From positions 655 to 64,654 of the forward strand of contig JAWOCK010000098.1 in NCBI GenBank assembly GCA_046483845.1: a stretch of 64,000 nucleotides of DNA, read 5' to 3'. This document shows positions 1,289 to 56,934 of the stretch, piece after piece. Under the pieces are notes generated by a model. That model had not been told where the DNA came from. It was given only the letters and a program-made list of their open reading frames with translations, and did not search any database. The position numbers and the translations under genes are program-made. Position 1 is the first letter of the stretch, and each line of letters starts with the position of its first letter. Source of the DNA: Thermoplasmatota archaeon (GTDB lineage Archaea; Thermoplasmatota; Penumbrarchaeia; Penumbrarchaeales; Penumbrarchaeaceae).

Positions 1289-2632
1289 CTATGTCCAATG
1301 TACAGCACTTATGAACTCGTCCCACTGGGTATCCTTTGCGAACTGGATATCCTCGTATGCAGGCATGTAGGATGAAGACCTGTATGGCAGGTATATCGAA
1401 ACCCCGTGGGCGTCGGGGTGCCCGCCGTCATCAAGGGTTCTCCTGTACATCAATATCAACTCATCCACGGCGTCCATTATGGATTGTGCATGTGAGGACC
1501 TCAGGGTGCCTGCGGTCGCTTTGGAGAGCTGGTAGGCGAGATCATAGACGTCGTAGTTTGTATAGACCGCATTGTAACCTATCCATTCCATCTGGTGAGA
1601 GAAGTATTCCGTATAGAGTTCGCTGTTCTGATACTCGGGGTGGCCTATGACCGTGTTTATTAAAAGTGCCTGATTTACGGTTTGACCGAACCCTGTGACC
1701 TTTGGGATGAGCTCGCTGGCTAGAAGGTCCAGTGATCTGACAAGCGGCTCTACATTGGATAGATTGAATACACCGAACACGTCCGAATAACCTTCCTTGG
1801 GAATGTAAGGTGGAGCCCTCCACGGTCCGTAGGGCATAAAGGTATCGCCCATGGTCAGTGCGAACTCCTCCCCTGTCATCTCCGGATAGGAGGACAGCTC
1901 TCTCCAGCATTCATCATACTGCCAGTTGCCCGGTTCCCAGACATCGTTCTCCGGTTCCGCCTCAGCTCCCCAACCATAAGTGGAGCCAGCAACGAAATAG
2001 TTGCAGGAACTGCTTATCTCGTAGGCGAACTCCACCATTCCGACCAGGCAGGCCTCCGTGGAAAGTACCTCGACATTCTTCCCTATATGTTCCTTGAAGG
2101 CATCCAAGGTCCTTCCGGTCTCCGGCAGATCCAGGTGATCATTGGAAAGCACATCCCAGCAGATACCCCTCCAACCGCCTCCGTGGTTGGCCAGATGGAC
2201 ATTGTATCTTTTGGCGGGATAATTATCCGCCCCCCATTTCAGGAACTCCAGGAGCTGGTCCCCATCGCCAGTGTTCAGCTCTCCGTCTGTCCATTCGGGA
2301 TCTATATCGGTTAGGTTCAGCTCCTTCGAGCCGTTCTGTTCCAGCTCCAGCAGTCTGGTGTCCCCTTCCTCTTCCTTGTCAAGTATGATAATAACGTTCA
2401 CCTTTTCGTTGTCGGGGACCATCTCGAGGAAATGGAGGTTGCACAGCATCATGTTCCATTCACCGAGATCTCCCTCCCCGCACATCCACATCAGGGAGGT
2501 CCACTCGGCAACATCGGTGCTTTTCTCATCACCGCCCCCCGGTTCCTCTCCCCCTCCGAAGACGACGACTGCGGCGATGATGAGAAGGGCAGATGCCGCA
2601 AGTGCTGCAAGGACCTTATGCTGCTTGTTCAT
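1289..2632 (-). CDS. Membrane-anchored clostripain-like (C11, clan CD) cysteine peptidase
   Basis: N-terminal hydrophobic anchor (LAALAASALLIIAAVVVF). His-Gly dyad motif (VHLANHGGGW) and Cys motif (LSTEACLVG) have the spacing and context typical of clan CD / clostripain-family peptidases. Confidence 0.55.
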   Translation of the reverse strand: MNKQHKVLAALAASALLIIAAVVVFGGGEEPGGGDEKSTDVAEWTSLMWMCGEGDLGEWNMMLCNLHFLEMVPDNEKVNVIIILDKEEEGDTRLLELEQNGSKELNLTDIDPEWTDGELNTGDGDQLLEFLKWGADNYPAKRYNVHLANHGGGWRGICWDVLSNDHLDLPETGRTLDAFKEHIGKNVEVLSTEACLVGMVEFAYEISSSCNYFVAGSTYGWGAEAEPENDVWEPGNWQYDECWRELSSYPEMTGEEFALTMGDTFMPYGPWRAPPYIPKEGYSDVFGVFNLSNVEPLVRSLDLLASELIPKVTGFGQTVNQALLINTVIGHPEYQNSELYTEYFSHQMEWIGYNAVYTNYDVYDLAYQLSKATAGTLRSSHAQSIMDAVDELILMYRRTLDDGGHPDAHGVSIYLPYRSSSYMPAYEDIQFAKDTQWDEFISAVHWT

Positions 2633-2696
2633 AATAGACCAAATTCGGGGTTTCCCTTAATAAGATTCCGATTCTTCCCATGACGGATCGTGTCCT

Positions 2697-3593
2697 TCAG
2701 GTGTTCCTGGCGACCAGATAGATACCGATTAGGACCAAGGGACCGCCCAACAGGGCACCGGCACCGGGGAGCTCCTGAAGGATCAACACTGCAAGAACAG
2801 TGGATCCCACGGGCTCACCCAAAAGTGATACCGAAACCAGGGTGGGTGAGACGTATCTCAAGGTCCAATTGTATATTGTGTGGCCTGCCAGCATGGGGCC
2901 GATCGCCAGTGCAAAGAGGATCAGATATTCCACCGGATCATCCGAAAGGAACCTCACCCCCAGGATGAATATGGCGATCAGTAAAAAGAGCGCTGCCCAC
3001 AGGTAGACTATGAATGCATAGGTGGGGAGGGACATCTCTTTCCTGTACCGGGACCCGGCAAGTATGTAAATACCGAACATCACCGCGCCCCCAAGTGCCA
3101 ACAGGTTCCCCAACACCGTCCCCTTTGACATCGTCAGGTCACCTCCGATCAGCACAAAGGAGCCGATCAGTGCCAATACCATCCCCATTACTGCCCTGGC
3201 ACCGAGCTTCTCCTTGAAGAACCAGACGGAAATGGATGCGACGAACAGTGGATGAGTGGTCACAAGTAGCACCGAACTCGATACCTTGGTGAACTGAAAG
3301 GACCAGATCCAAAGGGCGAAATGGGAAGCCAGTGCAAGTCCCACCAGGGAAAGTTCGACGACCTTCTTCCTCGAGAGCACGCTCCTCTCCCTTCCGAAGG
3401 TCCATATGAAAAATGGGAGCAGGACCGCATCGGCAATAAGAAGTCTCCATGCGGAAATGGCCAGAGGATGGCTGCTTGATAGTTTTATCAATATGGCCGC
3501 TGTAGAGACCGCTGCCATTGCCGCAAATACCCAATATTTGGAGGAGCCCTTGTTGAAGAGCGCTCCAAGAGCTCCGTCTCCGCTGTCGACCAT
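2697..3593 (-). CDS. EamA/DMT-superfamily transporter (10-TM)
   Basis: Hydrophobic 298-aa protein with two repeated 5-TM halves typical of EamA domains. Confidence 0.7.
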   Translation of the reverse strand: MVDSGDGALGALFNKGSSKYWVFAAMAAVSTAAILIKLSSSHPLAISAWRLLIADAVLLPFFIWTFGRERSVLSRKKVVELSLVGLALASHFALWIWSFQFTKVSSSVLLVTTHPLFVASISVWFFKEKLGARAVMGMVLALIGSFVLIGGDLTMSKGTVLGNLLALGGAVMFGIYILAGSRYRKEMSLPTYAFIVYLWAALFLLIAIFILGVRFLSDDPVEYLILFALAIGPMLAGHTIYNWTLRYVSPTLVSVSLLGEPVGSTVLAVLILQELPGAGALLGGPLVLIGIYLVARNT

Positions 3594-3634
3594 ATCGTTT
3601 TGAGAACTCCAACGCGGTTATTTAATAGGTTCTC

Positions 3635-4690
3635 GTGATAATGAGAGCCATGGACCAGGTGGGATACCCCTGGAGGATCAAGAGGGGGAGCAGCACCCTG
3701 GAGCTCACCCGACCCGTGGTGGTAGCTCCCATGGCGGGAGCCTATGATCCACCGTACAGGATGGTACTGCACCAGCTGGGCCTGGAGCTGTCGTTCACGG
3801 AGATGATAAGTGCAAGGGCGGTCCACGAGGGGTCGAACAGAACACGATCGATCTCCGATTGGGTGCCCGAAGAGGGATACTCCTGCGCCCAGATCTTCGG
3901 AGCGGACCCCATATATCTATCAACTGCCGCCCGCAGGATGGAGAGGATGGGGCACTCGATGATAGATCTCAATGCGGGATGCCCCAAGAGGAAGGTTACC
4001 GGAACTGGTGCAGGTTCAGCACTGCTCAGGGCACCATCCGTATTCCTCCGGTGCATCTGCTCCATCCTGGATTCTGTAAAGGTCCCCGTGGGAACGAAGA
4101 TAAGGTCAGGCTACAGCGAATATGATGATAACTTGCTCAGGGTGCTTGTAAAAGACCTACAGGGAGCAGGGATATCATATATCGCGGTCCACCCCCGCAC
4201 CGGTAAGCAGCAGTACACCGGAAAGGTTGACCGAAAGCTTATCGGAAAGGTCCGGTCATGGGTTGACATTCCCATCCTGGCCTCCGGGGATGTCAAGGGT
4301 CCTGAGGATGTGGAGCAATACCTGGACCTGGGTGCTTCCTCTGTCATGTTCGCAAGGGGAGCTCTTGGAGACCCGTTGTGGTTCGGAAGGACCCTGACCT
4401 GTTTGAACGGGGACAAGGAGTGGGTAAAAGACCCTGCCGGAGGTCAGGATGGATTGAAGGAACATCTCTCCCTGGTCAGGGACCATCTTGAAAACGCATG
4501 TGAATGGTACGGGGAGAAGAGAGGCTGTATAGAGTTCAGAAAGCATCTGGTCTGGTATATGAAGTGGTTCAGGAAGAGGGGTCCCTTCAGGGAAAGGGCA
4601 TATTCCATCAATACCAAGAACGATGCTCTTTCCCTTATATGCGACCTGGAGACGGAATGGGCCCGGGACCTTCAGATGAACCTTTATTAG
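3635..4690 (+). CDS. dus: tRNA-dihydrouridine synthase
   Basis: N-terminal VVVAPMAGAYDPPYR (FMN-binding Dus signature) and the conserved catalytic NAGCP motif (LNAGCPKRKV). TIM-barrel length. Confidence 0.8.
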   Translation: MIMRAMDQVGYPWRIKRGSSTLELTRPVVVAPMAGAYDPPYRMVLHQLGLELSFTEMISARAVHEGSNRTRSISDWVPEEGYSCAQIFGADPIYLSTAARRMERMGHSMIDLNAGCPKRKVTGTGAGSALLRAPSVFLRCICSILDSVKVPVGTKIRSGYSEYDDNLLRVLVKDLQGAGISYIAVHPRTGKQQYTGKVDRKLIGKVRSWVDIPILASGDVKGPEDVEQYLDLGASSVMFARGALGDPLWFGRTLTCLNGDKEWVKDPAGGQDGLKEHLSLVRDHLENACEWYGEKRGCIEFRKHLVWYMKWFRKRGPFRERAYSINTKNDALSLICDLETEWARDLQMNLY

Positions 4691-4740
4691 TCTGGACATC
4701 TATTTCGTTTCCCGAGATATCCATATCGGAGGTTCCCCAG

Positions 4741-7700
4741 ATGTACATCGGCAAAGAAAAGGTTTTTCCAGCCTGCCTGTTGACGGCAGTTATGCTGCTG
4801 TCTCCCTTTCTGATCGTGACCATGAGCGCGGAGGAAACTGTTTCCGAAAAAGAGCCTGCAACACGGGCCGAAAAATATTACCTGTCGGAACAGGACATAT
4901 ATCTTCCGAATGCGGAGAACAAGGACAATCTCTACCTGATAGCTTGGGTCGAGAGTGCGGACACCTACATAGGGACCAATATCAACGGAGGCAATTATGA
5001 GTTCAACTTCAGGACCATCGCGAACTCCTTCCCGATAAAGATCGACGGCTCGACACAGAGCTCGGGCTCGAAGAGAAGGGTCATGGTGGAGCTCTTCACT
5101 GCAAAGGACTGTCCTTACTGTCCCGGAGCTGACGGGTCCGTTGATGCAGTGGCCGACGAGAGGTTCCCGGACGACATGACCTTGATCTCATGGCATGAGG
5201 GATTGGAACCCGGCGGGGACAACCTTCAGAACAAGTATTCCGAGGGCAGGAACAGCGGATACAGTGTCGTATCGATGCCCAAACCCACTGTTATATTCGA
5301 CGGGGAAATTGCGCTCGTCGGAGGGGATCCCAGTGCAAGCGCACCTGACCTTGTGAAAGCCTACAACACAGTTGTGGACTATGCAATGGTGGAGCCTCCC
5401 ATGGTATCGATCTCCGGGTCCGGGAGCGCGTCTGGCGATATGATAGGTTTCAACACAAGTTTTCAGATCATGAACCCGATGCCCAGGGGTAACTGGTCGT
5501 TCAAGGTGGCCGTCTGTGAGGACATCCAGACAGAACACCAGGGAGCCGAGATCAGGTTCATTCCGAAATACGTCAAGACCAGCAGGATAACCGGACTCCT
5601 GGAGGGGTTCCCTGAGGTACAGCTCCATGATCAGCAGATGTTCAGCGATATCGACAGGAACGATGTACAAGAAGAGCTAGAGGTCCTCTGGACGGCCAGC
5701 GATCCCGAGGATGGAAATGATGTTGAGATAGATATCCTGATCAGCAGGGACCATGAAGCGTGGGAGAACGTGGCCTCTGGTCTATCCAACACCGGATCTT
5801 ACATATGGGATACCCTGGACCCGAGGGCACCGGACGGTGGATATCGGCTCAGGGTACTGGCCAGGGATAGCGATGGGAACGAGGTCCTCTCCGGGGAGGT
5901 CTCCACCTTCACTTTGGACAATAGGGACCCTCCCGAGGGAGAGATCACGGTCCCGGGAAAAGCCGGGGCATCGCTGGGAGGACGTATTACCTTCAAGTGG
6001 AACTCCTCTGATGATGAAGATGAGGTATCACAGCTGAAGGAACGGGTTTCGATCTCGGATGATGCGGGTACCACCTGGAGGGTTCTCACCACGGATCCCA
6101 GCGGCTGGGAGACCAACGACGGTAAGTTCATGATGAACTCACTGGTATATCCTGACCTTGACACATACGTGCTGAAGGTGGAGATCAAGGACAGGGATGA
6201 TATGATCACACCTTTGATATCTCCAAGGTTCGAGATATACAACAACGATGCTCCGGAGCCTACCATAATATCGCCTGCTTTCAAAGAGCAGATCACGGGG
6301 ACCCTTGATATCGGATGGAGTGCCCATGATGAAGAGGATGTTGCCTGGGGGATGTTCGAGAACATGACAGGCAACTTCTCCGTAAGGAAGTTGGGAAAAG
6401 ATGAATGGGTCAAGCTGTTCATCGGTCATCTCGATGAGGAGATGGAGAACAAGACATTCGATACCTCCGTGCTTCAGGGGGATGGAGATTACGTTCTCCG
6501 GTTCACGGTCACCGACTCCAGGGGGAGATCCGCGTTCGTTGAACGAGAATTCAGTGTCTACGATCCCGACCCTCCTGTCTTCACATCCCCTATAAAGGTA
6601 CCGTCGACAGAGGACGATCACCGAAATCGGATGTTCAACATCTCCTGGGAAGCAGAGGATGACGATGCCGGTGAGACGATAAGGTATACCCTGGAGATCT
6701 CCCCGGTTTCAGAGAACAACTGGACCTCCATTGCAGAGAAGATAACGGATACCGAGTACAGCATCAACCTTTCCGGTTACCAGGAGGGAAGGTACAAGCT
6801 GAGGATCACGGCTGTCGATTCTAGCCCATACAAGCTCAGCTCGGAGATAGAGTATGGTCCCTTCTATTGGAACGCGCCTGACAGGCCCGATCTGGAGTTC
6901 CTCTCACCCTATCCAGGATCCGATGAGGTCATCGAGGATGAAACGGGCCTTGCGAACCTCACCGGTTTCATGACGTATCCCGTAATCTGGAGCGGCTCCG
7001 ATCCCGACGGTGACAACATCACTTATTCATTGTATTACAAAAAGCAGAGCGACGAGGAATGGACATTGGTGGAAGATGGCATGGAAAAGAGCTCGGTCAT
7101 GTGGAACCTCTCCGGGTTCACCGACGGAAAGTACCTTCTCAGACTGGTGGGGGTGGACTCCTCACCCCAGAAGCTGAGTTCTGAGATCATTGCGGGACCA
7201 TATATCGTCGATGTTCCCTGGGACCCGCCAGTTGAAGATGACGATATCGAAGACGATGACGCAATAGATGACAATGATACAGTTGACAAAGGTATGGATC
7301 TGACCTTCATATTGATCTCGGCCACGGTGATCATATTATTAGCCATATTGGTGGCTGGCCTGGTGATCTTCCTCATGTCCCGGATCAAGGGTAAACAAAA
7401 AGAGACCTCTCCACCTGTGGTCCCCACCGAATCAGATGTGGACCTCTCCTCCATTCCGGGGTTCGAAAGACAGATGCCAACCAACATGCCACCGCAGCAG
7501 ATGATGCAGCCTCAAGACCCTGTACAACAGACGCCCGCTCGACCAATGCAGGAGCAGTCTCCGGTATCCGGGACCACTCAGGCACCCGAGATCCCACCTA
7601 GCGATAAAGGTGCGGCCCCGCCGGTTATGGAGCAGACGCCTGAAGAGGTACCGACACCCACCCCGCAGGTTCCTGAGAGTGGGGAGCAGGGCCTTCAGGA

Positions 7701-7803
7701 TACAGAACAGCAAGAGGAACCCCCTGGGCAGGATACCGATAAGGTTTCCGAGGAGGAAGAAAAAGGACCCATGGGCCCGCCGCCTTCGATACCTGACATC
7801 TAG
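4741..7803 (+). CDS. Large exported, membrane-anchored protein: N-terminal thioredoxin/glutaredoxin-like CPYC domain, tandem acidic Ig/Fn3-like beta-sandwich repeats, C-terminal TM and long Pro/Gln-rich cytoplasmic tail
   Basis: Start moved to MYIGKEK, followed by a signal/TM segment (LLTAVMLLSPFLIV). VMVELFTAKDCPYCPGADG is a thioredoxin-fold beta-strand plus CPYC active site. At least four ~100-aa repeats share W-x-[SA]-x-D-[DE]-D and Y-x-L/R-V-x-[AV]-D-S motifs. C-terminal TM (ILISATVIILLAILVAGLVIFL) is followed by a ~150-aa P/Q/E-rich tail. Confidence 0.7.
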   Translation: MYIGKEKVFPACLLTAVMLLSPFLIVTMSAEETVSEKEPATRAEKYYLSEQDIYLPNAENKDNLYLIAWVESADTYIGTNINGGNYEFNFRTIANSFPIKIDGSTQSSGSKRRVMVELFTAKDCPYCPGADGSVDAVADERFPDDMTLISWHEGLEPGGDNLQNKYSEGRNSGYSVVSMPKPTVIFDGEIALVGGDPSASAPDLVKAYNTVVDYAMVEPPMVSISGSGSASGDMIGFNTSFQIMNPMPRGNWSFKVAVCEDIQTEHQGAEIRFIPKYVKTSRITGLLEGFPEVQLHDQQMFSDIDRNDVQEELEVLWTASDPEDGNDVEIDILISRDHEAWENVASGLSNTGSYIWDTLDPRAPDGGYRLRVLARDSDGNEVLSGEVSTFTLDNRDPPEGEITVPGKAGASLGGRITFKWNSSDDEDEVSQLKERVSISDDAGTTWRVLTTDPSGWETNDGKFMMNSLVYPDLDTYVLKVEIKDRDDMITPLISPRFEIYNNDAPEPTIISPAFKEQITGTLDIGWSAHDEEDVAWGMFENMTGNFSVRKLGKDEWVKLFIGHLDEEMENKTFDTSVLQGDGDYVLRFTVTDSRGRSAFVEREFSVYDPDPPVFTSPIKVPSTEDDHRNRMFNISWEAEDDDAGETIRYTLEISPVSENNWTSIAEKITDTEYSINLSGYQEGRYKLRITAVDSSPYKLSSEIEYGPFYWNAPDRPDLEFLSPYPGSDEVIEDETGLANLTGFMTYPVIWSGSDPDGDNITYSLYYKKQSDEEWTLVEDGMEKSSVMWNLSGFTDGKYLLRLVGVDSSPQKLSSEIIAGPYIVDVPWDPPVEDDDIEDDDAIDDNDTVDKGMDLTFILISATVIILLAILVAGLVIFLMSRIKGKQKETSPPVVPTESDVDLSSIPGFERQMPTNMPPQQMMQPQDPVQQTPARPMQEQSPVSGTTQAPEIPPSDKGAAPPVMEQTPEEVPTPTPQVPESGEQGLQDTEQQEEPPGQDTDKVSEEEEKGPMGPPPSIPDI

Positions 7804-10538
7804 ATGCTGAAGAAACCGCCGATGTACCTGTATCCCCAGAAGGCATACCAGATAATGAACGACCCGGCGAATACCAGCAGCAGTCCCGATATCCTCTTTA
7901 CCTTGTCGGTGGAGGAGATGAACCTCTCCATCACCCTGCTCCCTGAGGCTGCAAGATATGAAAAGATGATCATCATTGTGGCTATTGCAAAGGTATAGGC
8001 CATGAACACGATGATACCCCCCAACCAACCCATTGCGGTGGAGGAACCGAGTATTATCACAGCGATGAAGGCCGGGGCCATACAGCTTGATGCGGCAGCC
8101 CCGTAACCGAACCCGTATGCGAAGAGCCCTCCGGACCCGGAGGGATCCGGCTCCCTGTTACCCCGGACCATCATGATCAGATATGTGAAAGGTCTCTTTA
8201 TCAGGTCAATGAACTTCTCCAGGAACTGGTCCTTACCGATCAGGGTTACCACACCCAACAACAGCAGTATGGCCCCTATCACAGGCATCAGCGTGATCAG
8301 CCAGGACTTCACCACCGCTCCCAGTATGGCCACCAGAACGGCTATGATAAGAAAGAATGCGATGATCCCCAGGGCCGCGAACACGCCTCCCCTGATCGGG
8401 TTCACCTTCCTGCGTTCTCCGGCCTGGCTCGATATGTAATATGACAGGTATCCGGGCAGCATCGGGAACGAACACGGTGAGAAGAAGGTAAGCACCCCGA
8501 AGGTCACTGCCGAGAGGGTGATGACTATCAAACCACTCTTTTGCGCGATACCTGAGATCCCGTAGGTTCCTTCATGCGCCTCGGTGATGGCAGTCCTGAC
8601 CTCGTCCTTATCTATGTATCCCGTATGCTGATATGCGATATCCCCGTTGGGAGCAACGATCACCATCTTCGGGGTCTCCAAGGCGTCGAACTTCTCTATG
8701 AAGGAAGTGTCCCGTCCTATGGACCACTCGGCCCCGTATTCGTTCTGGAAATCCCCCATCATATCCATGCTGTCATCTTTGTCCACTGAGACCGATAGGA
8801 ATTCCACCTCGCTCCCGTAGGTGTCCTTGGCCCATTGGTAAACCTCCACCACATCGGGCATTTCCTTTTCGCAGACCGAACAGGTGGTGTACATTATATC
8901 TATAACCAGGACTCTATCCTGATAATCCGCCGGTGTGTGAATGCTGCCTTTGGTGTCCGTCACCGAGAAATCGGGGACAGTTGTAACCTCCTTGCTCAAT
9001 AGGCTGGAGCCTCCGATGAAGGACACTATTAGGCCGATCATGATGACCATTGCCATGGTCCCCTTGGAGGAGAAGAACCGGAAGATGCCCCCCTCCCTTC
9101 TCTTCGAGATGAAATAGGCCAGAGGTCCCAATAGAATGATCAGAATTCCCATGATAATGATGGCGCCCCCTCCGGAAAGGTCCATGGAGGAAGAGTCCCC
9201 CGACCTCGAGTCGGACCCGTCTGCAAGATGGAACACCGGGGAACTTGACTGGGCAAGCTCGTCATCGTTGGCCAACACCTGGACGAAGAGCGGGCCCCCT
9301 TCATATCCTTCGATTACCGCCGTCCCCACGGGATCGGAATAAGCATAACACGTCCCGGTATCGTCGCATAGTTCTTCTCCTTGGAGTTCCAGCTTCACTG
9401 GTGTCCATTGAGTTGAATTCTCCGCTTTGGTGTTGTAGAACAGGGTGGAGCTTGCAATTCCACCCTCATCCTCGAAGGTAACGGTCACGATGTCTTCGGA
9501 CACTCGTGCATCGGTGACCCTCGGCGGCTGGTTATCCCTGTCGTAGGCAGTGGAATCCGAGGTGGCCGACTGGAGGGCCCTCGGTGTACCGGCCCTGGTA
9601 TTGCCGTCCGAGGCGCTTGCGACCGAATCTGTGTCCTGGGTATCGAACACCGCCGCCACGGCATACATGTTCTGAGGTCTGACGGGGACACCATCTTCGG
9701 GATTTATTTCGGGTATGGGGAAATCTCCCGAGAACTGGTAGGTCTCACCGTTCCTGAGCGTGAACCTCTCATCCTCCACAGCATATCCCCTGAAAACGGC
9801 GTCGTTCTCTACATATTGGTCATAGACAAGAGAATAGGCTTCCGCTCCGTCCTCGACCATGAAAACATAAAGTGATCCCTGAAGGGCGGGATTTGTCACC
9901 AGCTTTGCATTTCCGTCGTAGGTGACGCTTCCCACGACAGTGAACTCACCATCATCGTATACCTGGTCGATCTCCAGCCATAGATACGGGAAGCTCCACG
10001 TTAATCTCTCCATCGGTCTGTATGGTCTATTATTGTACCTCTGCTTGGACTCCTCTATGGCAAGCTGTATGTTGGACCTGTCGATGTCCCTTGTGGAGGT
10101 GGAGGCGCCACCGAGTTCGAAATAGCCTCCATCGAATTCCAGGTCCGGGGTGCCTGCAAGTCCAGGCTGGTAATGTTCCATCCTCTCCTCTGACTCCTCG
10201 GTCCTCAATGCGTCCACATTGCCCCCGTTGAGCTCGTGGAAGATCACAGTAGTGTGTGGGACGGACCCGTCATCCTTTGCCTCAAGATAAGTATCGTGGA
10301 CCGCTTTTTCCGGGCTGTCCGACGTGGGGCTGTCACCCATGCACGACGGGCAGGACAGGCCTGTGAAGAACTCCAGAAGAGGCCTATGTATCCATCCGGA
10401 CGGGGGCTGTGCCGCCATGCCATCGCCGGACCCTATCTGTGCCTCAGATGATCCTGTCTGGACCAGAGGCCCCAAGGAAATGAGGCCTGCTAGTACCAAC
10501 ATGATGACAATATACAGATCGAACTTCATGGCTGACAC
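7800..10538 (-). CDS. Fusion protein: exported CxxC thioredoxin-like N-domain plus large beta-rich domain, two TM helices, TlpA/ResA-like periplasmic thioredoxin domain, and a CcdA/DsbD-family transmembrane thiol-disulfide electron-transfer domain
   Basis: Signal peptide, then LLEFFTGLSCPSCMGD (CxxC). TlpA-like block DFSVTDTKGSIHTPADYQDRVLVIDIMYTTCSVCEKEMPDV…TPKMVIVAPNGDIAY. C-terminal polytopic domain carries the two CcdA/DsbD signature cysteines (TFGVLTFFSPCSFPMLPGY and GFGYGAAASSCMAPAF). Overlaps the preceding gene by 4 nt, tail to tail. Confidence 0.75.
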   Translation of the reverse strand: MSAMKFDLYIVIMLVLAGLISLGPLVQTGSSEAQIGSGDGMAAQPPSGWIHRPLLEFFTGLSCPSCMGDSPTSDSPEKAVHDTYLEAKDDGSVPHTTVIFHELNGGNVDALRTEESEERMEHYQPGLAGTPDLEFDGGYFELGGASTSTRDIDRSNIQLAIEESKQRYNNRPYRPMERLTWSFPYLWLEIDQVYDDGEFTVVGSVTYDGNAKLVTNPALQGSLYVFMVEDGAEAYSLVYDQYVENDAVFRGYAVEDERFTLRNGETYQFSGDFPIPEINPEDGVPVRPQNMYAVAAVFDTQDTDSVASASDGNTRAGTPRALQSATSDSTAYDRDNQPPRVTDARVSEDIVTVTFEDEGGIASSTLFYNTKAENSTQWTPVKLELQGEELCDDTGTCYAYSDPVGTAVIEGYEGGPLFVQVLANDDELAQSSSPVFHLADGSDSRSGDSSSMDLSGGGAIIIMGILIILLGPLAYFISKRREGGIFRFFSSKGTMAMVIMIGLIVSFIGGSSLLSKEVTTVPDFSVTDTKGSIHTPADYQDRVLVIDIMYTTCSVCEKEMPDVVEVYQWAKDTYGSEVEFLSVSVDKDDSMDMMGDFQNEYGAEWSIGRDTSFIEKFDALETPKMVIVAPNGDIAYQHTGYIDKDEVRTAITEAHEGTYGISGIAQKSGLIVITLSAVTFGVLTFFSPCSFPMLPGYLSYYISSQAGERRKVNPIRGGVFAALGIIAFFLIIAVLVAILGAVVKSWLITLMPVIGAILLLLGVVTLIGKDQFLEKFIDLIKRPFTYLIMMVRGNREPDPSGSGGLFAYGFGYGAAASSCMAPAFIAVIILGSSTAMGWLGGIIVFMAYTFAIATMMIIFSYLAASGSRVMERFISSTDKVKRISGLLLVFAGSFIIWYAFWGYRYIGGFFSI

Positions 10539-10658
10539 CCGGAGTTCAGAATACCTCCTCTACTGTCCGAAAACCTATGGTTATTTACTCTTTACCGCGA
10601 ATATGGTAAAACTCCACTGCCCATCACGTTTTAATAATCGACGATTGATGGACCCGCA

Positions 10659-11726
10659 ATGGAGCTCGATCTCTTCGATTACGATCTGCCCCGCGAGATG
10701 ATAGCGCAGTCCAAATCGGACCCGAGGGATTCCTCCAGGTTGTTCTATATGGATGCCAGAGGTGAAAGGACCATACACCGGCATCATGTGTTCAGGGATA
10801 TCGTGGGACTTCTGGACAAGGGAGATATACTGGTCCTGAACAGATCGAGGGTGATCCCCGCCAGGATACCGGTGAGGAAAGTGACAGGCGGCAGGGCCGA
10901 GGTACTGCTCCTGAAAGGATCGGATGACGGGTCCTGGGAAGCATTGGTTAGGGGAAGGAACATAAAGAAAGATGAGCGGCTGCTCTGCGATGATGAGGAT
11001 CTTGAGATATTGATGAAGGAAAGGATGCATGAAGGAAGGTGCAGGATAGCGTTCCGGCGAAGGAATGGTCCGATGGACCATTCAGCGGCCATGGAATGGC
11101 TTCGTCGGTGGGGGCTCATGCCTACACCCCCGTACATCAAAAGGATACTGGACGATCCCGAGGAGTACCAGACCGTCTACGGGGACATGGAAGGTTCCGT
11201 GGCCGCTCCCACGGCAGGACTGCATTTCACAGAAGGCCTTCTGGAAAGACTGAGGGAAAAAGGTGTCAGGATCGTCCACATCATCCTCCACGTAGGACCC
11301 GGGACCTTCGCACCGGTGAGGTCCAAAGATATCAATGACCATATCATGGAAGAAGAAGAGTTCCTGATCCCCGAGAGCGTCAAGGATACGGTCAGGGATG
11401 CTGTCGAACAAAGGGATAGTAACGGGGCTAACAGGATATGGGCCGTGGGGACCACGACGATGAGGTCGCTGGAGTCAGCATTCGATGAGCAGGGTGAATG
11501 CATCCGGGAAAAAGGGAAGACCGACCTTTTCATCACCCCCGGATACCAGTTCAAGCTCCCCTACAAGGGTTTCATAACCAACTTCCACCTGCCAAGGTCA
11601 ACCCCCCTCATGCTGGTCTCGGCGTTCCACGACCGCGAGAGCATACTGGCGGCATACCATGAAGCGATGAGGATGGGTTATCGGTTCTATTCGCTTGGTG
11701 ACTCCATGATGATAAGGAGAGGTTGA
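10659..11726 (+). CDS. queA: S-adenosylmethionine:tRNA ribosyltransferase-isomerase (queuosine biosynthesis)
   Basis: Matches bacterial QueA blocks along the full length: LPREMIAQ…RDSSRL, VLNRSRVIPARI, YQTVY…SVAAPTAGLHFT, HVGPGTF, AVGTTTMRSLES, ITNFHLPRSTPLMLVSAF, YRFYSLGDSM. Confidence 0.9.
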   Translation: MELDLFDYDLPREMIAQSKSDPRDSSRLFYMDARGERTIHRHHVFRDIVGLLDKGDILVLNRSRVIPARIPVRKVTGGRAEVLLLKGSDDGSWEALVRGRNIKKDERLLCDDEDLEILMKERMHEGRCRIAFRRRNGPMDHSAAMEWLRRWGLMPTPPYIKRILDDPEEYQTVYGDMEGSVAAPTAGLHFTEGLLERLREKGVRIVHIILHVGPGTFAPVRSKDINDHIMEEEEFLIPESVKDTVRDAVEQRDSNGANRIWAVGTTTMRSLESAFDEQGECIREKGKTDLFITPGYQFKLPYKGFITNFHLPRSTPLMLVSAFHDRESILAAYHEAMRMGYRFYSLGDSMMIRRG

Positions 11727-11727
11727 A

Positions 11728-12876
11728 TTGGCACATTTCCATCTTGAGCTGGGAGAGAGAATGGGACCAAGGGCGGGTAAGCTCGAGCTTCCCTCCGGGT
11801 GCAAGGTCGAGACGCCGCTCTTCATGCCGGTGGCGACCAAGCTCTCGGTCAAGACACTGGAGCCCGAAGAGGTGAAGCGCACCGGAACGACCACCTTGAT
11901 AACCAACGGTTTCCTTACCTCTCTCGAACCGGGGAGCAGCGAGGTGAGGTCCATGGGCGGACTGCACAGGATGATGGGGTGGAGCGGGGGGATCTTCTCC
12001 GACTCCGGTGGTTTCCAGTTCATCAGGAGGGGCTTCGATGCAAAGGTGGAGGATAAAGGGGTTCGTCTCCGCTCACCCTACTCCGGAGCCCCCGTATGCT
12101 TGACCCCTGAAAGTGTGGTGGACATGCATGTAATGCATGGTGTAGATGTAGGCATGGTACTGGACCACTGCCCCCCATACTCCTCCACCGAAGAGGGTAT
12201 CCTCGATTCCGCCCGCAGGACAGTCCACTGGGCCAGAAGGTCCAGGGACCACATGGAGGGCGAAGAGCTCAGGGAGCTTTTACCGGACTGCGTTTCGGAG
12301 CTGCCGTTACTCTATGCCATAACCCAGGGGGGTACTTTCCTTGATATCAGAAGAAAGAACACGGAAAAGCTTGTGGAGCTGGACCTCCCTGGTTACGGAA
12401 TAGGGGGGCTCTCCATAGGGGAAGGAAAGAAGGAAATGTTCAATGCCCTGGAGGCATCCACTTCCTATCTTCCGGCGGATAGACCCAGATATTTCATGGG
12501 GATGGGGGAGCCGACCGACCTTATAAGGTCGGTCCTGGCGGGTGTTGATCTATTCGATTCCGTGTTCCCCACCCGCAACGCCAGGCACAGGTCCGTTTTC
12601 GTAGGCAGCGGGAAGGAGAACATCAGGGCCTCCGGGTGGAAGGGGAACCATGGGCCGATAATGGAGGGGTGCGGATGCCACACCTGCAATAACTTCTCCA
12701 GGGCCTTCGTTCATCATCTCTTCAAGACCATGGAACCCCTGGGACCGAAACTAGCCACGGTCCACAACGTCCACTATATGCAGGACATGATGAAAGGGAT
12801 CAGGACCTTGATCCAGGAAGAAGATATGGAGGGCTCTCCGGATGATATATTGTCCAGGATATTCCAGGTGCGTTGA
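11728..12876 (+). CDS. tgt: Queuine/preQ1 tRNA-ribosyltransferase, bacterial-size (382 aa, no PUA domain)
   Basis: TGT blocks ETPLFMPVATK, DSGGFQF and the Zn site CGCHTCNNFSRAFVHHL. Starts 1 nt after the queA stop (apparent TTG start), so operonic. Confidence 0.85.
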   Translation: MAHFHLELGERMGPRAGKLELPSGCKVETPLFMPVATKLSVKTLEPEEVKRTGTTTLITNGFLTSLEPGSSEVRSMGGLHRMMGWSGGIFSDSGGFQFIRRGFDAKVEDKGVRLRSPYSGAPVCLTPESVVDMHVMHGVDVGMVLDHCPPYSSTEEGILDSARRTVHWARRSRDHMEGEELRELLPDCVSELPLLYAITQGGTFLDIRRKNTEKLVELDLPGYGIGGLSIGEGKKEMFNALEASTSYLPADRPRYFMGMGEPTDLIRSVLAGVDLFDSVFPTRNARHRSVFVGSGKENIRASGWKGNHGPIMEGCGCHTCNNFSRAFVHHLFKTMEPLGPKLATVHNVHYMQDMMKGIRTLIQEEDMEGSPDDILSRIFQVR

Positions 12877-13063: not shown

Positions 13064-15661
13064 ATGATGGGAAGGAAAAAGATGATTGGTAGTATGGCAT
13101 CATCGTTCATTGCGCTGATGCTGACTATGTCTGCTGTATTGCTGCTGTTTCCGATACCGGATGCGGTAGCTCAAACCGGAGAATACGATGATCCGATAAT
13201 TGACCTGAATATGGTAAATAACATGGAGGTAAGACCAGCTCATGCTTTCAATACCTCTTCGCAAAATATAATAATCAGCTGGGAATGGCCGGAGATGTGG
13301 GCAATGAACACTGGACCTTACGAGGTTACCATCGAGATGTATGATAGCGAATCGATGTTGCCTATTCGCTGGCCGATATTCCATTGGCATGTCGAATCCG
13401 GAACCCCCGCACCAGAATCATATGAATGGGAATTGAACAATTCGCTTCAGCCATCGGACAGCTATGTTTTCAACCTTACATCTATGGCCAACAACAGCGA
13501 TACTGGTACTTATTATATGGACTGGGACGAGGCTCCTTTCGAGATAATGGATGGAACACCAATGATAGAGGATATTAGCGCCGATCCACTTGTTGTGGAC
13601 AACAGCGGAACGGGCGTAATCAATATCACATTCTCGTTCAACAGACATTTCGACCATTTGGACAGAGGGAATTTCACAATGGGGCTGTTCAACTACAATA
13701 CGATGGAATGGATAGAATTGGATGTAGATGAGCCTTCGCCGGAAAACATATCCTCCGGTCCTTACTCATCAACAGCCTGGACCCACGTAACTATTCCCTT
13801 TGACACTCCTACCGGAGAATATTATCTCCATCTCAATGCAGTGGATGTATGGGAATACGGGGAAACGTGGAATGAAAGCATATTCAGGGTCATCTGGAGA
13901 GAGGTCCCACCTGTGATGGTTAATGATACCATACATATGAACGAGGATGAATTCGCATTGGTGGACCTCAACGATCATTTCACGGATCCAAACGGACAGG
14001 ATCTGACATATTACATCAATATGTCCGCCGTTGAAAATATAACCATAGTCTGGGTGAATAATCATACCATCAATATCACAGCTCCAATGGATTGGAACGG
14101 CGAACAGGACTTTGGGATCGCCGTTACGGATGGGATCGATCTGCCGGGCCACAATGCGACCTTCACCATGAACGTTATCGTCCATCCCATGCCTGACGAT
14201 CTGCGCCCCACCGAGGATCGGATCGTTATGATCAACGAGGTATTGATGGAAACATACTTCGATCCTTTGGAATTCTTCTACCATCCCGACGGACCCGTGA
14301 ACCTCACTGTATCCATCGGATACGAGGAGGTCGTCGTGAACGATACCTCCAACGAGACCGAGAAACAGCCTATCTGGCACTTCGAGGAAGGGAATATCTC
14401 GGTCGAGATGAACGAGACCCAGCAGAACATGTCCAAGGCCATGCTCCTTCAGGATTTCGAGGAGGGAAGCTGGGAGTTCCCAATAGCAGCCTGGATAGAC
14501 GGCGAATGGGTGATGAACGGGACCGCATTTGTTGAGGTGGACCCCGTCAACGACGTACCCATGCTGGCCGTGGAGGGCATTACCTTCTACTATGATGAGA
14601 TCTTCACTGCCAACCTGGCCGATCTCTTCTACGATCCGGATTCCACCAATCTCAGCTTCATTGTGGACACCACCGCCGAGAACCTGGTGATAGATTACAA
14701 CGAGACCACTCACGATATCGCCATATCCGTTGAGAACAACTGGACCGGAAACTCCGAGTTCGAGGTCAACGTCTCGGACGGCGAGGACTACAACGTGGTC
14801 ATGATACCAGTCGAGGTCCAGATGCACACCTACACCCTCAGTGGTGTAGTGGATTACGAGGATAACGAGACACACGGACTGGAAGGCGTCTTCGTGACCC
14901 TCATGGTCGGTGAGACAGAGGTGCCCGTTGACAACGTCACCGGCGAATATTCCGTGGAACTCGTGGAAGGCGAATACTCCGTATCCATAACCCTCGGAAC
15001 CGATATGATCTATGATGAAGAGGCGGGACAGAGCGGATACATTGCACCCGAACTGGACAATATGACCATGGATATGGATAAGACCCTCGATATTTCCATC
15101 GAGTGGATGGAATATACGGAGAGCGCAGAAGAAGCTACCTGGGAGGACATCGATTTCGATAGTGCTGTCAAGGAGGAAGAGGATGACACCTTGACCTTCG
15201 CAATCCCGGTTAAGAACGAAAGCAGGACCGGCTACGGTGACCTGAAGGTCTATCTCATCATATACGATGATGAAGAAGAGTGGGAGTTCAACTTCACCTG
15301 GATAGAGAGCGACATGGAATATACCCTGGAGATCTCCGAGGATCAGATGGATGATCTTCCCGAGGGGAAGCTCAAATACAAGTACTCCGACAAGGCAGGT
15401 AACGAGACCTCCGAGATGGAATATACCTTCAGGGACGAGAAGCAGGACGCTTCACTGGTGACGGTCATCGTATTGATCGTCCTCATCATACTGGTCCTCA
15501 TCGCCCTGGTCTTCATCATGAGGAAGCCCTCGGAGGAGTTCGACGAGGAAGAAGAAGAGGAAGAAGAAGGGGAGCGCGTCTGCCCGTCCTGCGGTGAGAC
15601 CATCGCCGATGAGGAAGCAGTGGAGTGCCCCTATTGCGGCGAGTCCCTGGAAGAAGAGTGA
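13064..15661 (+). CDS. Large acidic exported surface (glyco)protein with cadherin/Ig-like repeats, C-terminal TM, poly-Glu linker and a cytoplasmic C-terminal zinc ribbon
   Basis: Signal peptide (IGSMASSFIALMLTMSAVLLLFPIP). Very high D/E content with numerous N-x-S/T sequons and repeat-like blocks (…VDLNDHFTDPNGQDLTYY…, …LADLFYDPDSTNLSF…). TM (LVTVIVLIVLIILVLIALVFIM), then EEEEEEEEG and CPSCGETIADEEAVECPYCGE. Confidence 0.7.
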   Translation: MMGRKKMIGSMASSFIALMLTMSAVLLLFPIPDAVAQTGEYDDPIIDLNMVNNMEVRPAHAFNTSSQNIIISWEWPEMWAMNTGPYEVTIEMYDSESMLPIRWPIFHWHVESGTPAPESYEWELNNSLQPSDSYVFNLTSMANNSDTGTYYMDWDEAPFEIMDGTPMIEDISADPLVVDNSGTGVINITFSFNRHFDHLDRGNFTMGLFNYNTMEWIELDVDEPSPENISSGPYSSTAWTHVTIPFDTPTGEYYLHLNAVDVWEYGETWNESIFRVIWREVPPVMVNDTIHMNEDEFALVDLNDHFTDPNGQDLTYYINMSAVENITIVWVNNHTINITAPMDWNGEQDFGIAVTDGIDLPGHNATFTMNVIVHPMPDDLRPTEDRIVMINEVLMETYFDPLEFFYHPDGPVNLTVSIGYEEVVVNDTSNETEKQPIWHFEEGNISVEMNETQQNMSKAMLLQDFEEGSWEFPIAAWIDGEWVMNGTAFVEVDPVNDVPMLAVEGITFYYDEIFTANLADLFYDPDSTNLSFIVDTTAENLVIDYNETTHDIAISVENNWTGNSEFEVNVSDGEDYNVVMIPVEVQMHTYTLSGVVDYEDNETHGLEGVFVTLMVGETEVPVDNVTGEYSVELVEGEYSVSITLGTDMIYDEEAGQSGYIAPELDNMTMDMDKTLDISIEWMEYTESAEEATWEDIDFDSAVKEEEDDTLTFAIPVKNESRTGYGDLKVYLIIYDDEEEWEFNFTWIESDMEYTLEISEDQMDDLPEGKLKYKYSDKAGNETSEMEYTFRDEKQDASLVTVIVLIVLIILVLIALVFIMRKPSEEFDEEEEEEEEGERVCPSCGETIADEEAVECPYCGESLEEE

Positions 15662-20779: not shown

Positions 20780-23700
20780 TCACTCGAAAACGGCACCGCA
20801 GTGCGGACAGATCGGAGCGGATACCGGTATCAAGGCCCCGCACTCGAAACATTCGGCGAGCTCCTCTTCTTCCTCCTCCACCGGAACCGGAGCCGCATCC
20901 TCGCCAGGAGCCTCCTCCTCGATCTCCTCGGAGCCCTCCTCTTCGAGTTCCTCGAGCTCTTCCTCCTCTTCTTCGAACTCTTCATCCTCCCGACCTTCTT
21001 TCTCCTCTTCCTCCGAAGGTCCCTCCTTCTGTAACGGTTCTACATCGGCCTTTACAGGTCTATGGCAGGCCGGGCACTCCGTGGCACCGGTCGGTATCAG
21101 CTCGCCGCACTCACATTCCAACTCATCCGAGAACTCGACACCGCAATGCGGGCATATATCCGCATCGAGCTGGACCAGGCCCCCACAGTTGGAACATTTT
21201 GCCATGTCCTTTGTCTTGTATTTCTTATACACGAAGTAGCCGATAGCACCACCGATGAGAAGCAGGACCAGTATGATGATCAATATCCACACCCATAGAC
21301 GGCTGGGTTCATCCCCTTCCTGGATCTGGACAATGACCGTCGCTTCATTGTTGTCCTTGTCGGATTCATAATAGCTATTCTCATCATCTATCTTCACCCT
21401 GAACAACTTGACATCACCCACAGAGCCTTCTGGTTCGACCCTGAAGGTGACAAGAACTTCTTGATATGGAAGAAGGTCTACGGTCCTCAGATAGCTCTCA
21501 CCTTCAGCAAGCGAGGCGGGTTCATCGAACTCAACCTGGAGATCATGAAAGGAGAAGTTGCCGTTGTTGGTGACCTTGAACGTAACTTCATACTCTTTGT
21601 CCTCTTTCATATCGAACTGCCCGGTCTCTATATTGTACACATCACTTTCCCTCAGAAGTTCGATGGATAGGTCGGGTGCCTCCATCACCTCCAATTGCAG
21701 GGTCAATACATTGTTCCCTTCATCGAACTCCCGTATACTGTTCTCGGGGTCGACCATTATCCTCAACATGTTCATCCCCAGATCCTTCAGGTTCCAGTGG
21801 CCCCTTATCACATCCGTTCCGTTGGTTTCGAGGAAAGGTATCCTGATTATCTTCTCCGTCCAGCTATCGGTATCATTATATGCCTTGAAAAGGACCGTCG
21901 TATTGCTGGCAGCCTTACCACCTATATTGGTCAGGTTCAGCTCCAGGGAGATATTCATACCTAGGTAGGCCATTGGTTCATATTCCAGATCGATGTCGAT
22001 ACCAGGATATCCGGTGGACAACATCAGAGAGCTGTTGGATAGTAAAAGCTCAGGAACATCCTGTATGTCAAATATTTCAACCTGATGGTGAATGCGGTTG
22101 TTGGAGGTGGTCTGCTCCTCCCCTTCCAGCAGGTCCACCTCAACCAGCAATGTCCTGATACCCTTGGGATAATCAGCGATCCAGGGCCTCTCGACGAACA
22201 TGCTGGACCTCCCGGGCAAGGTCCCTGCAAGGTAGGTCATTCCTATTCCCAGCGGGATCGGGTTGGGATCGTTCTCGAACTCCGCATTGAAGAACCTTAT
22301 CCTGAAGGTAGGGGCAGTGGTATCTCCCGTGTTCTCAACGGTTGTGTTTATGGTAAGACGGTTTCCCACTCCCACACTGTTCACCTCGAAATCACCCTGA
22401 TAGAGAGTGATGTTGGTGACCTCCAGGTCGGGCAGTGTCCGGACATACATCTTCCAGAACACCTTGTTGTTCTCTTCATCGCTCTCATCAATGGTATCGA
22501 CCAGGTCCAGGATGACATATATTTCATGATCACCACCGGTTGTGGGGGTCCATGTGACATTTGCCCATCTGAAACCCCCTGCCGGGACAATGTTGATGGA
22601 AACGGAGGGCTGTGTCTCCTTCCAGGAGATTATCTTTCCACCTTCCAGCGGATCTCCGTCGTAGAACCTTATGAAAACGTTCCTTGCAGGAGTTTCGCCG
22701 GAGTTCCTTACAGATGCACTGATGGTGACCTCTTCCCCGATATCAATATTGCGATCCGGTGAGAAATAGAGATCGTTCGTACCCATGTACAGATCAGGTT
22801 TGGAGATCACCCTGATATCGATGGATCGGAGATTGTTATCCTCGTCGGGTTCTTTTATGATATCCCGGGGGTCGGCAACTATGAACATGGTCCTGAACCC
22901 GCTTTCTTCCTCTGCCCTCCGGGATTCCCATGTTATGGAGATGTTCTTTTCCTGACCCGGTAGAAGATCAACATTCACTGTGCTGATGACATTCGTATCA
23001 GAGTCAAGCGCGAACTCCACCTTTGCATTATGAGCCATTGTCTTTCCTATGTTCTTTACAGTGGCCCAGAAGGTGGCGTTCTTGCCTTCTGTTATTACAC
23101 TGGGAGAGACACCAATGTTCGAAGTGAAGGTCAGATCCGGTGGGGTGTCAACCCTTATCGGGAAGATCACCTCGTTGTTCGCCTCGTTCTGTTCCCTTAC
23201 ATCATCATTTAAGTCAATTGCAACGATCAGTTCATGTACACCGGTCGGCGGTCCCGCATACCAGATGAACTCCAGTTCGATATCATCGCCAGGGGATAGC
23301 CCGGGTACCGAACGGTCAAGGTCTATCTTATTTTCCTCGGTCCTTTCCCCGTCATAAACGCTCACCATGAAAGCTCCTGCAGGCAGGTCTCCCGTGTTCT
23401 CTATGGTGAACGTCACCACCGCCGTGGTGTTCACCGTTACCGGGTCCGGTACATTGATGCCGAAGGAGTTCAGGACAAGCCCGATATCCGGAAGCGAAAG
23501 TACCTCTATGGTCCGGACATCGATCGAGTTTATGGGTGACCTGTCGTACTTGGATACCACGGATCCCACCACGTTCAATGTTCCAAGGGCCATGGGCGTC
23601 AAGTTCACGGTCTTCTCCACGGTCTCGCCGGGCGGTATATAATCGAACATCAAAAAGGAGCGGATCTCGCCTTCTCCTGAAGCATCGGTCCATGTCATGT

Positions 23701-56774: not shown

Positions 56775-56830
56775 GGAGCCTTTATATGTTTGCAATTATT
56801 GGATAATTAGAACTAAAATGGTCCCGGCTC
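56775..56830. repeat. Direct repeat copy 2, overlapping the 3' end of tRNA-Tyr
   Basis: See copy 1. This copy is contiguous with the intact tRNA gene. Confidence 0.6.
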
Positions 56831-56934
56831 CCGGATTTGAACCGGGGGTCTAAGGATGTCTGCGGGGGGGCGGGGAGGAGCTCCCCGGGATCCAACTACA
56901 GTCCCCCGCTCTAGCCAGACTGAGCCAAGCCGGG
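56819..56934 (-). tRNA. tRNA-Tyr: tRNA-Tyr (anticodon GUA) with a 38-nt canonical-position intron (37/38) and encoded CCA
   Basis: Folded by hand on the minus strand. Acceptor CCCGGCT/AGCCGGG (7 bp), U8, D-arm GCTC-AGTCTGGCTA-GAGC (G18G19). Anticodon stem GGGGA/TCCTT with loop C-U-GUA-G|intron|A. Intron TTGGATCCCGGGGAGCTCCTCCCCGCCCCCCCGCAGAC. Variable loop AGACC, T-arm CCCGG-TTCAAAT-CCGGG, discriminator A, then CCA. Coordinates ±1-2. Confidence 0.8.

Follow-up and report, generated by a model that had tools for sequence, protein, structure and literature searches.

Archaea of the kind considered here have no periplasm, and their extracytoplasmic thiol-disulfide chemistry is poorly charted; the closest systems, DsbD and ScsB, have to our knowledge so far been described in bacteria. 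E. coli DsbD (alpha-beta-gamma) carries a DsbD_TM conduit with two membrane-embedded cysteines, an external thioredoxin-like domain, and a substrate-facing domain on one polypeptide, which holds three redox pairs in all. Throughout this superfamily, the thioredoxin-like gamma domain receives its electrons from the membrane domain, and the choice of substrate is determined by a separate alpha domain. ScsB of Caulobacter and Salmonella is a reductase of the same class, whose larger, nonhomologous alpha domain sets the substrate range, and arrangements with split alpha and CcdA parts are known in bacteria (PMC3322552). CcdA together with ResA, CcsX, or TlpA forms a known donor-acceptor pair (System II; TlpA-Sco-CoxB pathway), and the surface protein HBP35 of P. 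gingivalis exhibits CxxC-dependent insulin-reductase activity (PMC2907840). Here, we analyzed a 64,000-nucleotide stretch of DNA (the window) from a Thermoplasmatota archaeon, in which two convergent genes, A and B, encode large proteins with CxxC modules. Based on sequence and structural models, B probably belongs to the DsbD superfamily as a transmembrane thiol-disulfide reductase contained in a single polypeptide, with a six-helix CcdA core and a three-station reductive relay, and is best read as a permuted, three-module reductase resembling DsbD and ScsB.

Both genes are genuine long open reading frames (ORFs), as described in an earlier note made from the DNA letters alone, and every peptide quoted there was found at its expected position: VMVELFTAKDCPYCPGA at residues 114 to 130 of A (5080-5130) and, in B, LLEFFTGLSCPSCMG at residues 54 to 68 (10335-10379), IDIMYTTCSVCEKEM at residues 546 to 560 (8859-8903), FFSPCSFPMLPGY at residues 685 to 697 (8448-8486), and AAASSCMAPAF at residues 814 to 824 (8067-8099). 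The C-terminal half of B contains the two domains that the note had assigned to it. Residues 520 to 646 matched Pfam Redoxin (PF08534; 41.2 bits versus a cut-off of 26.6), with AhpC-TSA and SCO1-SenC also exceeding their gathering cut-offs, and ResA-type thioredoxins were the PDB sequence matches of this half of the protein (1e-6 to 1e-7). The nearest NCBIfam models, ResA (NF002854; 46.8 versus 170) and TlpA (NF047696; 24.7 versus 230), both stayed well below cut-off. The CxxC of this TlpA-like domain was nearly invariant among homologues, and its cis-proline motif, I/T-P-K, was conserved. Residues 671 to 891 matched DsbD_TM (PF02683; 32.8 bits versus 27.1) and include the two signature cysteines expected of CcdA, C689 and C819. 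Hydropathy analysis predicted a signal or anchor segment at residues 1 to 30, a two-helix hairpin with a K/R-rich loop at residues ∼456 to 513, and then six transmembrane (TM) helices, of which loops 1, 3, and 5 are K/R-rich and predicted to lie inside. CcdA has six helices with both termini outside (N-out, C-out), and the predicted topology of B agrees with this arrangement. Hydropathy and the positive-inside pattern thus place the N-terminal 420 residues and the TlpA-like domain outside the membrane, which fits the extracytoplasmic position that had been proposed for the thioredoxin domains.

The N-terminal ectodomain of B had no Pfam family match, and a profile of its N-terminal module (N-module) returned only chance matches among PDB sequences. 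An AF2 model of the ectodomain (63 homologues) reached a pLDDT of 90.6 and a pTM of 0.91. In this model, the CxxC of C63/C66 opens the first helix after strand 1 and the G-T-P131 motif directly precedes strand 3, so that both occupy the canonical active-site and cis-proline positions of a thioredoxin. The best structural matches, shared with the N-module of A, were P. gingivalis HBP35, Agrobacterium Atu2684 (DUF1223), and the Omp28 family, all of which likewise combine a thioredoxin fold with a beta-sandwich and carry their CxxC at the N terminus of helix 1. Sequence similarity of the A and B modules to these families was at or under family thresholds; moreover, the bacterial proteins are lipoproteins or type IX secretion system (T9SS) cargo and have no link to CcdA or TlpA, whereas A and B are TM-anchored archaeal proteins. 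The last ∼100 residues of the ectodomain matched Fn3 and CBM56 folds. The earlier note had postulated a ∼450-residue beta-rich, adhesin-like surface domain and a separate first thioredoxin module in this region. The beta-rich and thioredoxin contents were both present, but they form one HBP35/DUF1223/Omp28-like unit (residues ∼40 to 345) followed by an Fn3-like domain (∼346 to 445), rather than an adhesin-like domain plus a separate thioredoxin.

Homologues of B numbered 69 in the database (∼60 of full length; identity down to 33%), and those of both A and B came exclusively from Thermoplasmatota metagenome-assembled genomes (MAGs). Thirty-six B loci belonged to species-representative genomes, including those of “Candidatus Thalassarchaeaceae” (Marine Group II). 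The four redox sites of B (C63/C66, C553/C556, C689, and C819) were conserved in the 28 to 63 homologues aligned, down to 33% identity, as was the CxxC of A among its own homologues, which bears out the expectation that these motifs would be kept. In full-length homologues, the CcdA motifs xPCxxP (TM1) and CxAP (TM4) were present in 60/62 and 57/62, respectively, and the N-module CxxC was kept in every fused member with an intact N terminus. C391 and C397 of the Fn3-like domain were invariant or nearly so and probably form a structural disulfide. A profile of the B N-module, run exhaustively against 1.84 billion representative proteins, returned only 88 relatives; the family is small and restricted to one lineage. 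Pfam recognized nothing in homologues consisting of the N-module only (N-only), except for one weak Omp28 match (E = 0.004) in a single member.

Locus arrangements were mapped with hidden Markov models over all fetched loci (∼47). B was fused at about two dozen loci, and the N-module stood alone at a few. At seven Marine Group II loci, B was split into two adjacent same-strand genes, one encoding the N-module with a C-terminal TM helix and the other an N-terminal TM helix with the TlpA-like and CcdA domains; the break lies exactly between what, in the fused protein, are the two helices of the hairpin. Fission at this point is a classical Rosetta-stone argument for the N-module and the TlpA-CcdA part working together, and the proposed relay within B is thus supported by these split genes.

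In the relay that we infer, including its direction, its order, and its final substrates, cytoplasmic thioredoxin would reduce the membrane-embedded pair C689/C819, which in turn would reduce C553/C556 of the extracytoplasmic TlpA-like domain, joined directly to CcdA helix 1. This domain would then reduce C63/C66 of the HBP35-like module, tethered via the two-helix hairpin. As the substrate-facing, “alpha-like” module, the latter would reduce or isomerize disulfides, or reduce sulfenic acids, on surface proteins. Protein A, whose paralogous CPYC module is borne on a stalk made up of five Fn3-like repeats, would be a dedicated client or partner of B.

B shares with DsbD the general features outlined above but differs from it in several respects. 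Its membrane core has six TM helices (CcdA type) rather than eight, and its modules run in the order alpha-like, hairpin, gamma-like, beta, so that the thioredoxin-like domain precedes the membrane core, whereas the gamma domain of DsbD is C-terminal. In place of the Ig-like alpha domain of DsbD, B has an alpha-like module that joins a thioredoxin fold of the HBP35/DUF1223 type to a beta-sandwich, and the host is an archaeon. An assignment as DsbD proper was ruled out by the fold of the N-module, the helix number, and the position of the thioredoxin-like domain. The B family resembles ScsB in having split versions, here in Marine Group II, but there is no detectable alpha-domain homology, and ScsB has eight TM helices. 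Furthermore, the diagnostic Lys eight residues past the first TM cysteine of ScsB (PMC3322552) is a Tyr in B (C689-SFPMLPG-Y), by which identity with ScsB was also ruled out. The C-terminal 400 residues of B correspond to the pair of CcdA and ResA/CcsX/TlpA; unlike in that pair, donor and acceptor are covalently fused and a third CxxC module is added. In contrast to System II, no ResB/ResC or Ccs genes lie nearby, and the ResA and TlpA family cut-offs were not reached. Mycobacterium tuberculosis DipZ (PDB 5cyy) differs in that its soluble domains follow the membrane domain; it is bacterial and has only one thioredoxin-like domain, together with a CBM-like beta-sandwich. The combination seen in B is covered by no family model, and we found none like it in the literature, in line with the earlier judgment that the architecture is not a standard one.

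Features of genes A and B, of the window, and of two comparison loci (positions refer to the window unless a locus is named)
Feature	Position	Strand	Remarks
Gene A	4741-7803	+	ORF of 1020 aa; 11 homologues aligned
A N-module (aa ∼32-300)	4834-5640	+	HBP35/DUF1223-like thioredoxin fold + beta-sandwich; C124-P-Y-C127; third conserved Cys, C259
A stalk	5641-7275	+	Five acidic Fn3/Ig-like repeats of ∼105 aa, cysteine-free; repeat motif, pI 4.08, weak Fn3/Big Pfam matches
A TM helix (aa ∼855-882) and cytoplasmic tail	7303-7800	+	Tail of 135 aa, acidic, Pro/Gln-rich; hydropathy, composition
Gene B	7800-10538	-	ORF of 912 aa; homologue counts in text
B N-module (aa ∼40-345)	9504-10421	-	Thioredoxin fold + beta-sandwich; active site C63-P-S-C66, presumed cis-Pro G129-T-P131
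B Fn3-like domain (aa ∼346-445)	9204-9503	-	Conserved C391/C397 on either side of a beta-hairpin turn
B two-helix membrane hairpin (aa ∼456-513)	9000-9173	-	Cytoplasmic loop SKRREGGIFRFFSSKG; hydropathy, split genes in L042
B TlpA/ResA-like thioredoxin domain (aa ∼515-660)	8559-8996	-	C553-S-V-C556; Pfam, PDB matches
B CcdA/DsbD_TM domain (aa ∼667-905)	7824-8540	-	Six TM helices; C689 in FFSPCSFP, C819 in ASSCMAP
C11 (clostripain-family) cysteine peptidase	1289-2632		N-terminal hydrophobic anchor
QueA and Tgt-family gene	10659-12876		Adjoining
Giant surface protein cluster	13064-15661, 20780-26497, 26803-32928, 34176-39533		Big_9 (865 aa); CARDB with six matched stretches (1905 aa); Lamin-tail + PLD (2041 aa); subtilase + PKD/Big (1785 aa)
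tRNA gene	56822-56934	-	113 nt
Split B genes	L042: 9917-11377 and 11437-12828		Example of gene fission
CcmC-like ORF	L026: 2178-2921		Ccm region, 2178-10725
CcmB	L026: 2911-3591		Ccm region
CcmA	L026: 3584-4066		Ccm region
CcmF	L026: 5941-8514		Ccm region
N-only B homologue	L026: 9220-10725	+	Adjoins the Ccm genes

The N-modules of A and B are homologous (hhalign probability, 96%; E = 3.6e-9). A model of residues 30 to 400 of A (pLDDT 88.7) had DUF1223/HBP35 and thioredoxins as its top fold matches, with Pfam DUF1223 (PF06764) below threshold (14.6 versus 30.7). There was no Pfam Glutaredoxin match for A, and TIGR00411 scored only 23.7 versus 92.75; the CPYC motif that had been called glutaredoxin-type is thus present, but in a fold that is HBP35/DUF1223-like and not that of a glutaredoxin. 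It was invariant as CxxC in all 11 long homologues and met the strict motif in four of five short A-type proteins, the fifth of which (P0086) also has CPYC. The profile search for A-type proteins returned these five short forms only; the long homologues evidently escaped its word prefilter. At locus L033, the short A-like protein scored near the thresholds of Omp28 (PF11551; 34.0 versus 34.9) and DUF1223 (28.4 versus 30.7). Furthermore, extra N-terminal strands of the long form, LYLIAWVESADTY...ANSF (4834-5058), are similar to VVAFVQDIQTGEIYQGAQ, the strands at the C terminus of the short DUF1223-like form (L033:11399-12397), a similarity that suggests a circular permutation of the beta-sandwich between long and short forms. 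Beyond the N-module, A contains the tandem acidic Ig/Fn3-like repeats noticed earlier, five in number, with the motif W-x-[AS]-x-D at residues 317, 420, 526, 636, and 750, and the ectodomain has a pI of ∼4.1. The predicted cytoplasmic tail is indeed Pro/Gln-rich (21% Pro, 13% Gln) but somewhat shorter than the ∼150 residues estimated before. No further copies of the N-modules, the TlpA-like domain, or the A repeats were detected in the window by phmmer against all six-frame ORFs.

That A is functionally coupled to B and reduced by it is a tentative proposal, to which we give slightly less than even weight. With no evident electron source to itself and an invariant CxxC on a long stalk, A is the most plausible dedicated client of B. 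All clade-1 loci (at least 50% identity) with enough flank, 12 distinct loci in total, had the convergent pair; the contigs of P0069 and P0029 end too soon for neighbor comparison. In clade 2 (L033 and L043 to L046), a short (∼330-residue) CPYC protein has independently been kept convergent with an N-only B-type gene, and the neighbors there are tRNA-splicing endonuclease (EndA) and FtsY/prefoldin instead of Dus and QueA as in clade 1. Pairing was thus conserved in two clades, as far as the coupling claimed in the earlier note is concerned, but within flanks of up to 10 kb it did not extend to the many B homologues at 33 to 37% identity. Several observations weigh against coupling, and some against the relay itself. 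The clade-1 pair is part of a conserved block, Tgt-QueA-B-A-Dus-EamA, and since this whole block is syntenic, adjacency of A and B within it is weak evidence alone. The clade-2 B-type module had no TlpA-CcdA part within the flank examined. No A-like gene was found within flanks of up to 10 kb near the B homologues at 33 to 37% identity, whose neighbors were unrelated, or near the split genes of Marine Group II. Finally, the CxxC was lost wholly or in its first cysteine in three divergent N-only paralogues (P0107, P0120, and P0116), which are probably redox-inactive derivatives, and HBP35 complements an E. coli dsbA mutant, so that an oxidizing role of the N-module is conceivable (PMC2907840). 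A and B might accordingly be independent surface proteins that share a domain family and are neighbors by phylogenetic inertia, with B working alone and A being adhesin-like or S-layer associated, with a redox or nonredox role of its own. The six-gene synteny and the distant B homologues lacking A would fit such independence, as would the anchor and long stalk of A, which would put its CPYC module far from the module of B. We consider this rather unlikely in view of the clade-2 pair, which recurs in a different neighborhood, the retention of the CxxC in long and short forms of A, and the lack of an obvious electron source in A.

Alternatively, the C-terminal half of B could simply serve to reduce thiols in the maturation of cytochrome c (or CuA/Sco), like CcdA with ResA, CcmG, or TlpA; the N-module would then be an accessory handling apocytochrome or heme. 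In System II, CcdA is classically paired with a thioredoxin of the ResA/TlpA type (PMC3781833), ResA was the best NCBIfam match of B, SCO1-SenC exceeded its Pfam cut-off, and HBP35 binds hemin (PMC2907840). In L026 (Thermoplasmata MAG SG225.bin14), moreover, the N-only B homologue adjoins System I cytochrome c maturation genes (CcmF, CcmB, CcmA, and a CcmC-like gene). Such genes were found beside an N-module homologue at this locus only, however (1 of ∼47), and neither the window nor any flank contained another heme-handling (WWD-motif) ORF or a multi-CxxCH ORF. Class I and class II cytochrome c families were missing from every Thermoplasmatota genome in one survey (PMC9287336), and the ResA and TlpA equivalog scores given above are far under their cut-offs. 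The TlpA-like domain has a CxxC motif, unlike the CxxxC of Sco, on which ground a Sco-like copper chaperone was ruled out. Altogether, a role in cytochrome maturation appears unlikely. Still less probable, in our estimation, is that the N-modules are oxidants forming disulfides in the manner of DsbA, or noncatalytic heme- or metal-binding domains, rather than terminal reductases fed by CcdA. Besides the dsbA complementation and hemin binding reported for HBP35, the invariant His of the module (H101 in B, H152 in A) and the paralogues without CxxC are compatible with these roles, but an oxidase would hardly be expected to be fused covalently to a reductive CcdA-TlpA pair or to share an operon with it, and the CxxC that every fused member with an intact N terminus retains speaks against either role.

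The stop codons of A and B overlap within the palindrome CTAG (7800-7803), so that the genes are not separated by any spacer and a terminator would have no space between them. The frame of A is open from 4504, and homologue N termini align with the Met at 4741. P0070 is longer than A by 28 codons; if these lie at the N terminus, they would run into the Dus gene. B likely starts at GTG 10538 or ATG 10529; P0001, the identical NCBI protein, has 891 residues, 21 short of the 912-residue ORF (10476-10538), and if the shortfall is N-terminal, that start loses most of the signal or anchor segment found in all homologues, so that the two upstream starts fit better. At L004 (7341-9917), and also at L022, L029, and L031, a ∼860-residue membrane-anchored protein is encoded directly upstream of the B homologue on the same strand; a precomputed Peptidase_C25 label for this gene was not used, since direct hmmscan gave no Pfam family.

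In the archaeal window, an Rfam scan had a tRNA gene as its sole match, whose length implies an intron. The queuosine pathway, of which QueA is part, is usually regarded as bacterial; here QueA adjoins a Tgt-family gene in an archaeon, and the same arrangement was seen in L001, L002, and L048. A C11 cysteine peptidase gene lies on the other side of the pair, and a cluster of giant surface proteins is also encoded in the window. Two of these giant proteins end in a zinc-ribbon tail, as does P0114, in which an Fn3 stalk carries a B-type N-module.

In a wider interpretation, A and B would make up a surface redox system with two tiers, peculiar to those Thermoplasmatota that degrade proteins, the abundant Marine Group II among them. 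B would export cytoplasmic electrons and the stalked CPYC module of A would carry them beyond the envelope, where it would open disulfide-bonded extracellular proteins or keep exported cysteine peptidases active in oxidizing water. Its context is the C11 peptidase, homologues of which were kept within ∼10 kb of the pair at eight distinct clade-1 loci (nine locus identifiers, L001 and L025 being the same contig), and the subtilase and other giant surface proteins encoded nearby. We regard this as an improbable, speculative extension; if true, it would amount to an archaeal “extracellular disulfide reductase” without a described counterpart.

The component domains of the B/A system are already known, and the system is not a new principle. 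For this architecture, with its domain combination, permuted order, archaeal range including Marine Group II, HBP35-like alpha module, and paired stalked paralogue, we found no description in the searchable literature. It should be of interest to research on Dsb systems and on the archaeal cell surface. If true, the proposed reading would give a probable function to ∼90 sequence clusters without a domain model that recognizes them and would connect the HBP35/DUF1223/Omp28 proteins of bacteria with a reductive pathway. Should the relay operate in the proposed way, an archaeal phylum that is widespread and includes the globally abundant Marine Group II would have independently built a DsbD-like three-station relay. 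Its parts, a CcdA core with TlpA-like and HBP35-like modules, differ from the bacterial ones, and the relay would offer a defined system in which to test how surface cysteines are kept reduced in archaea.

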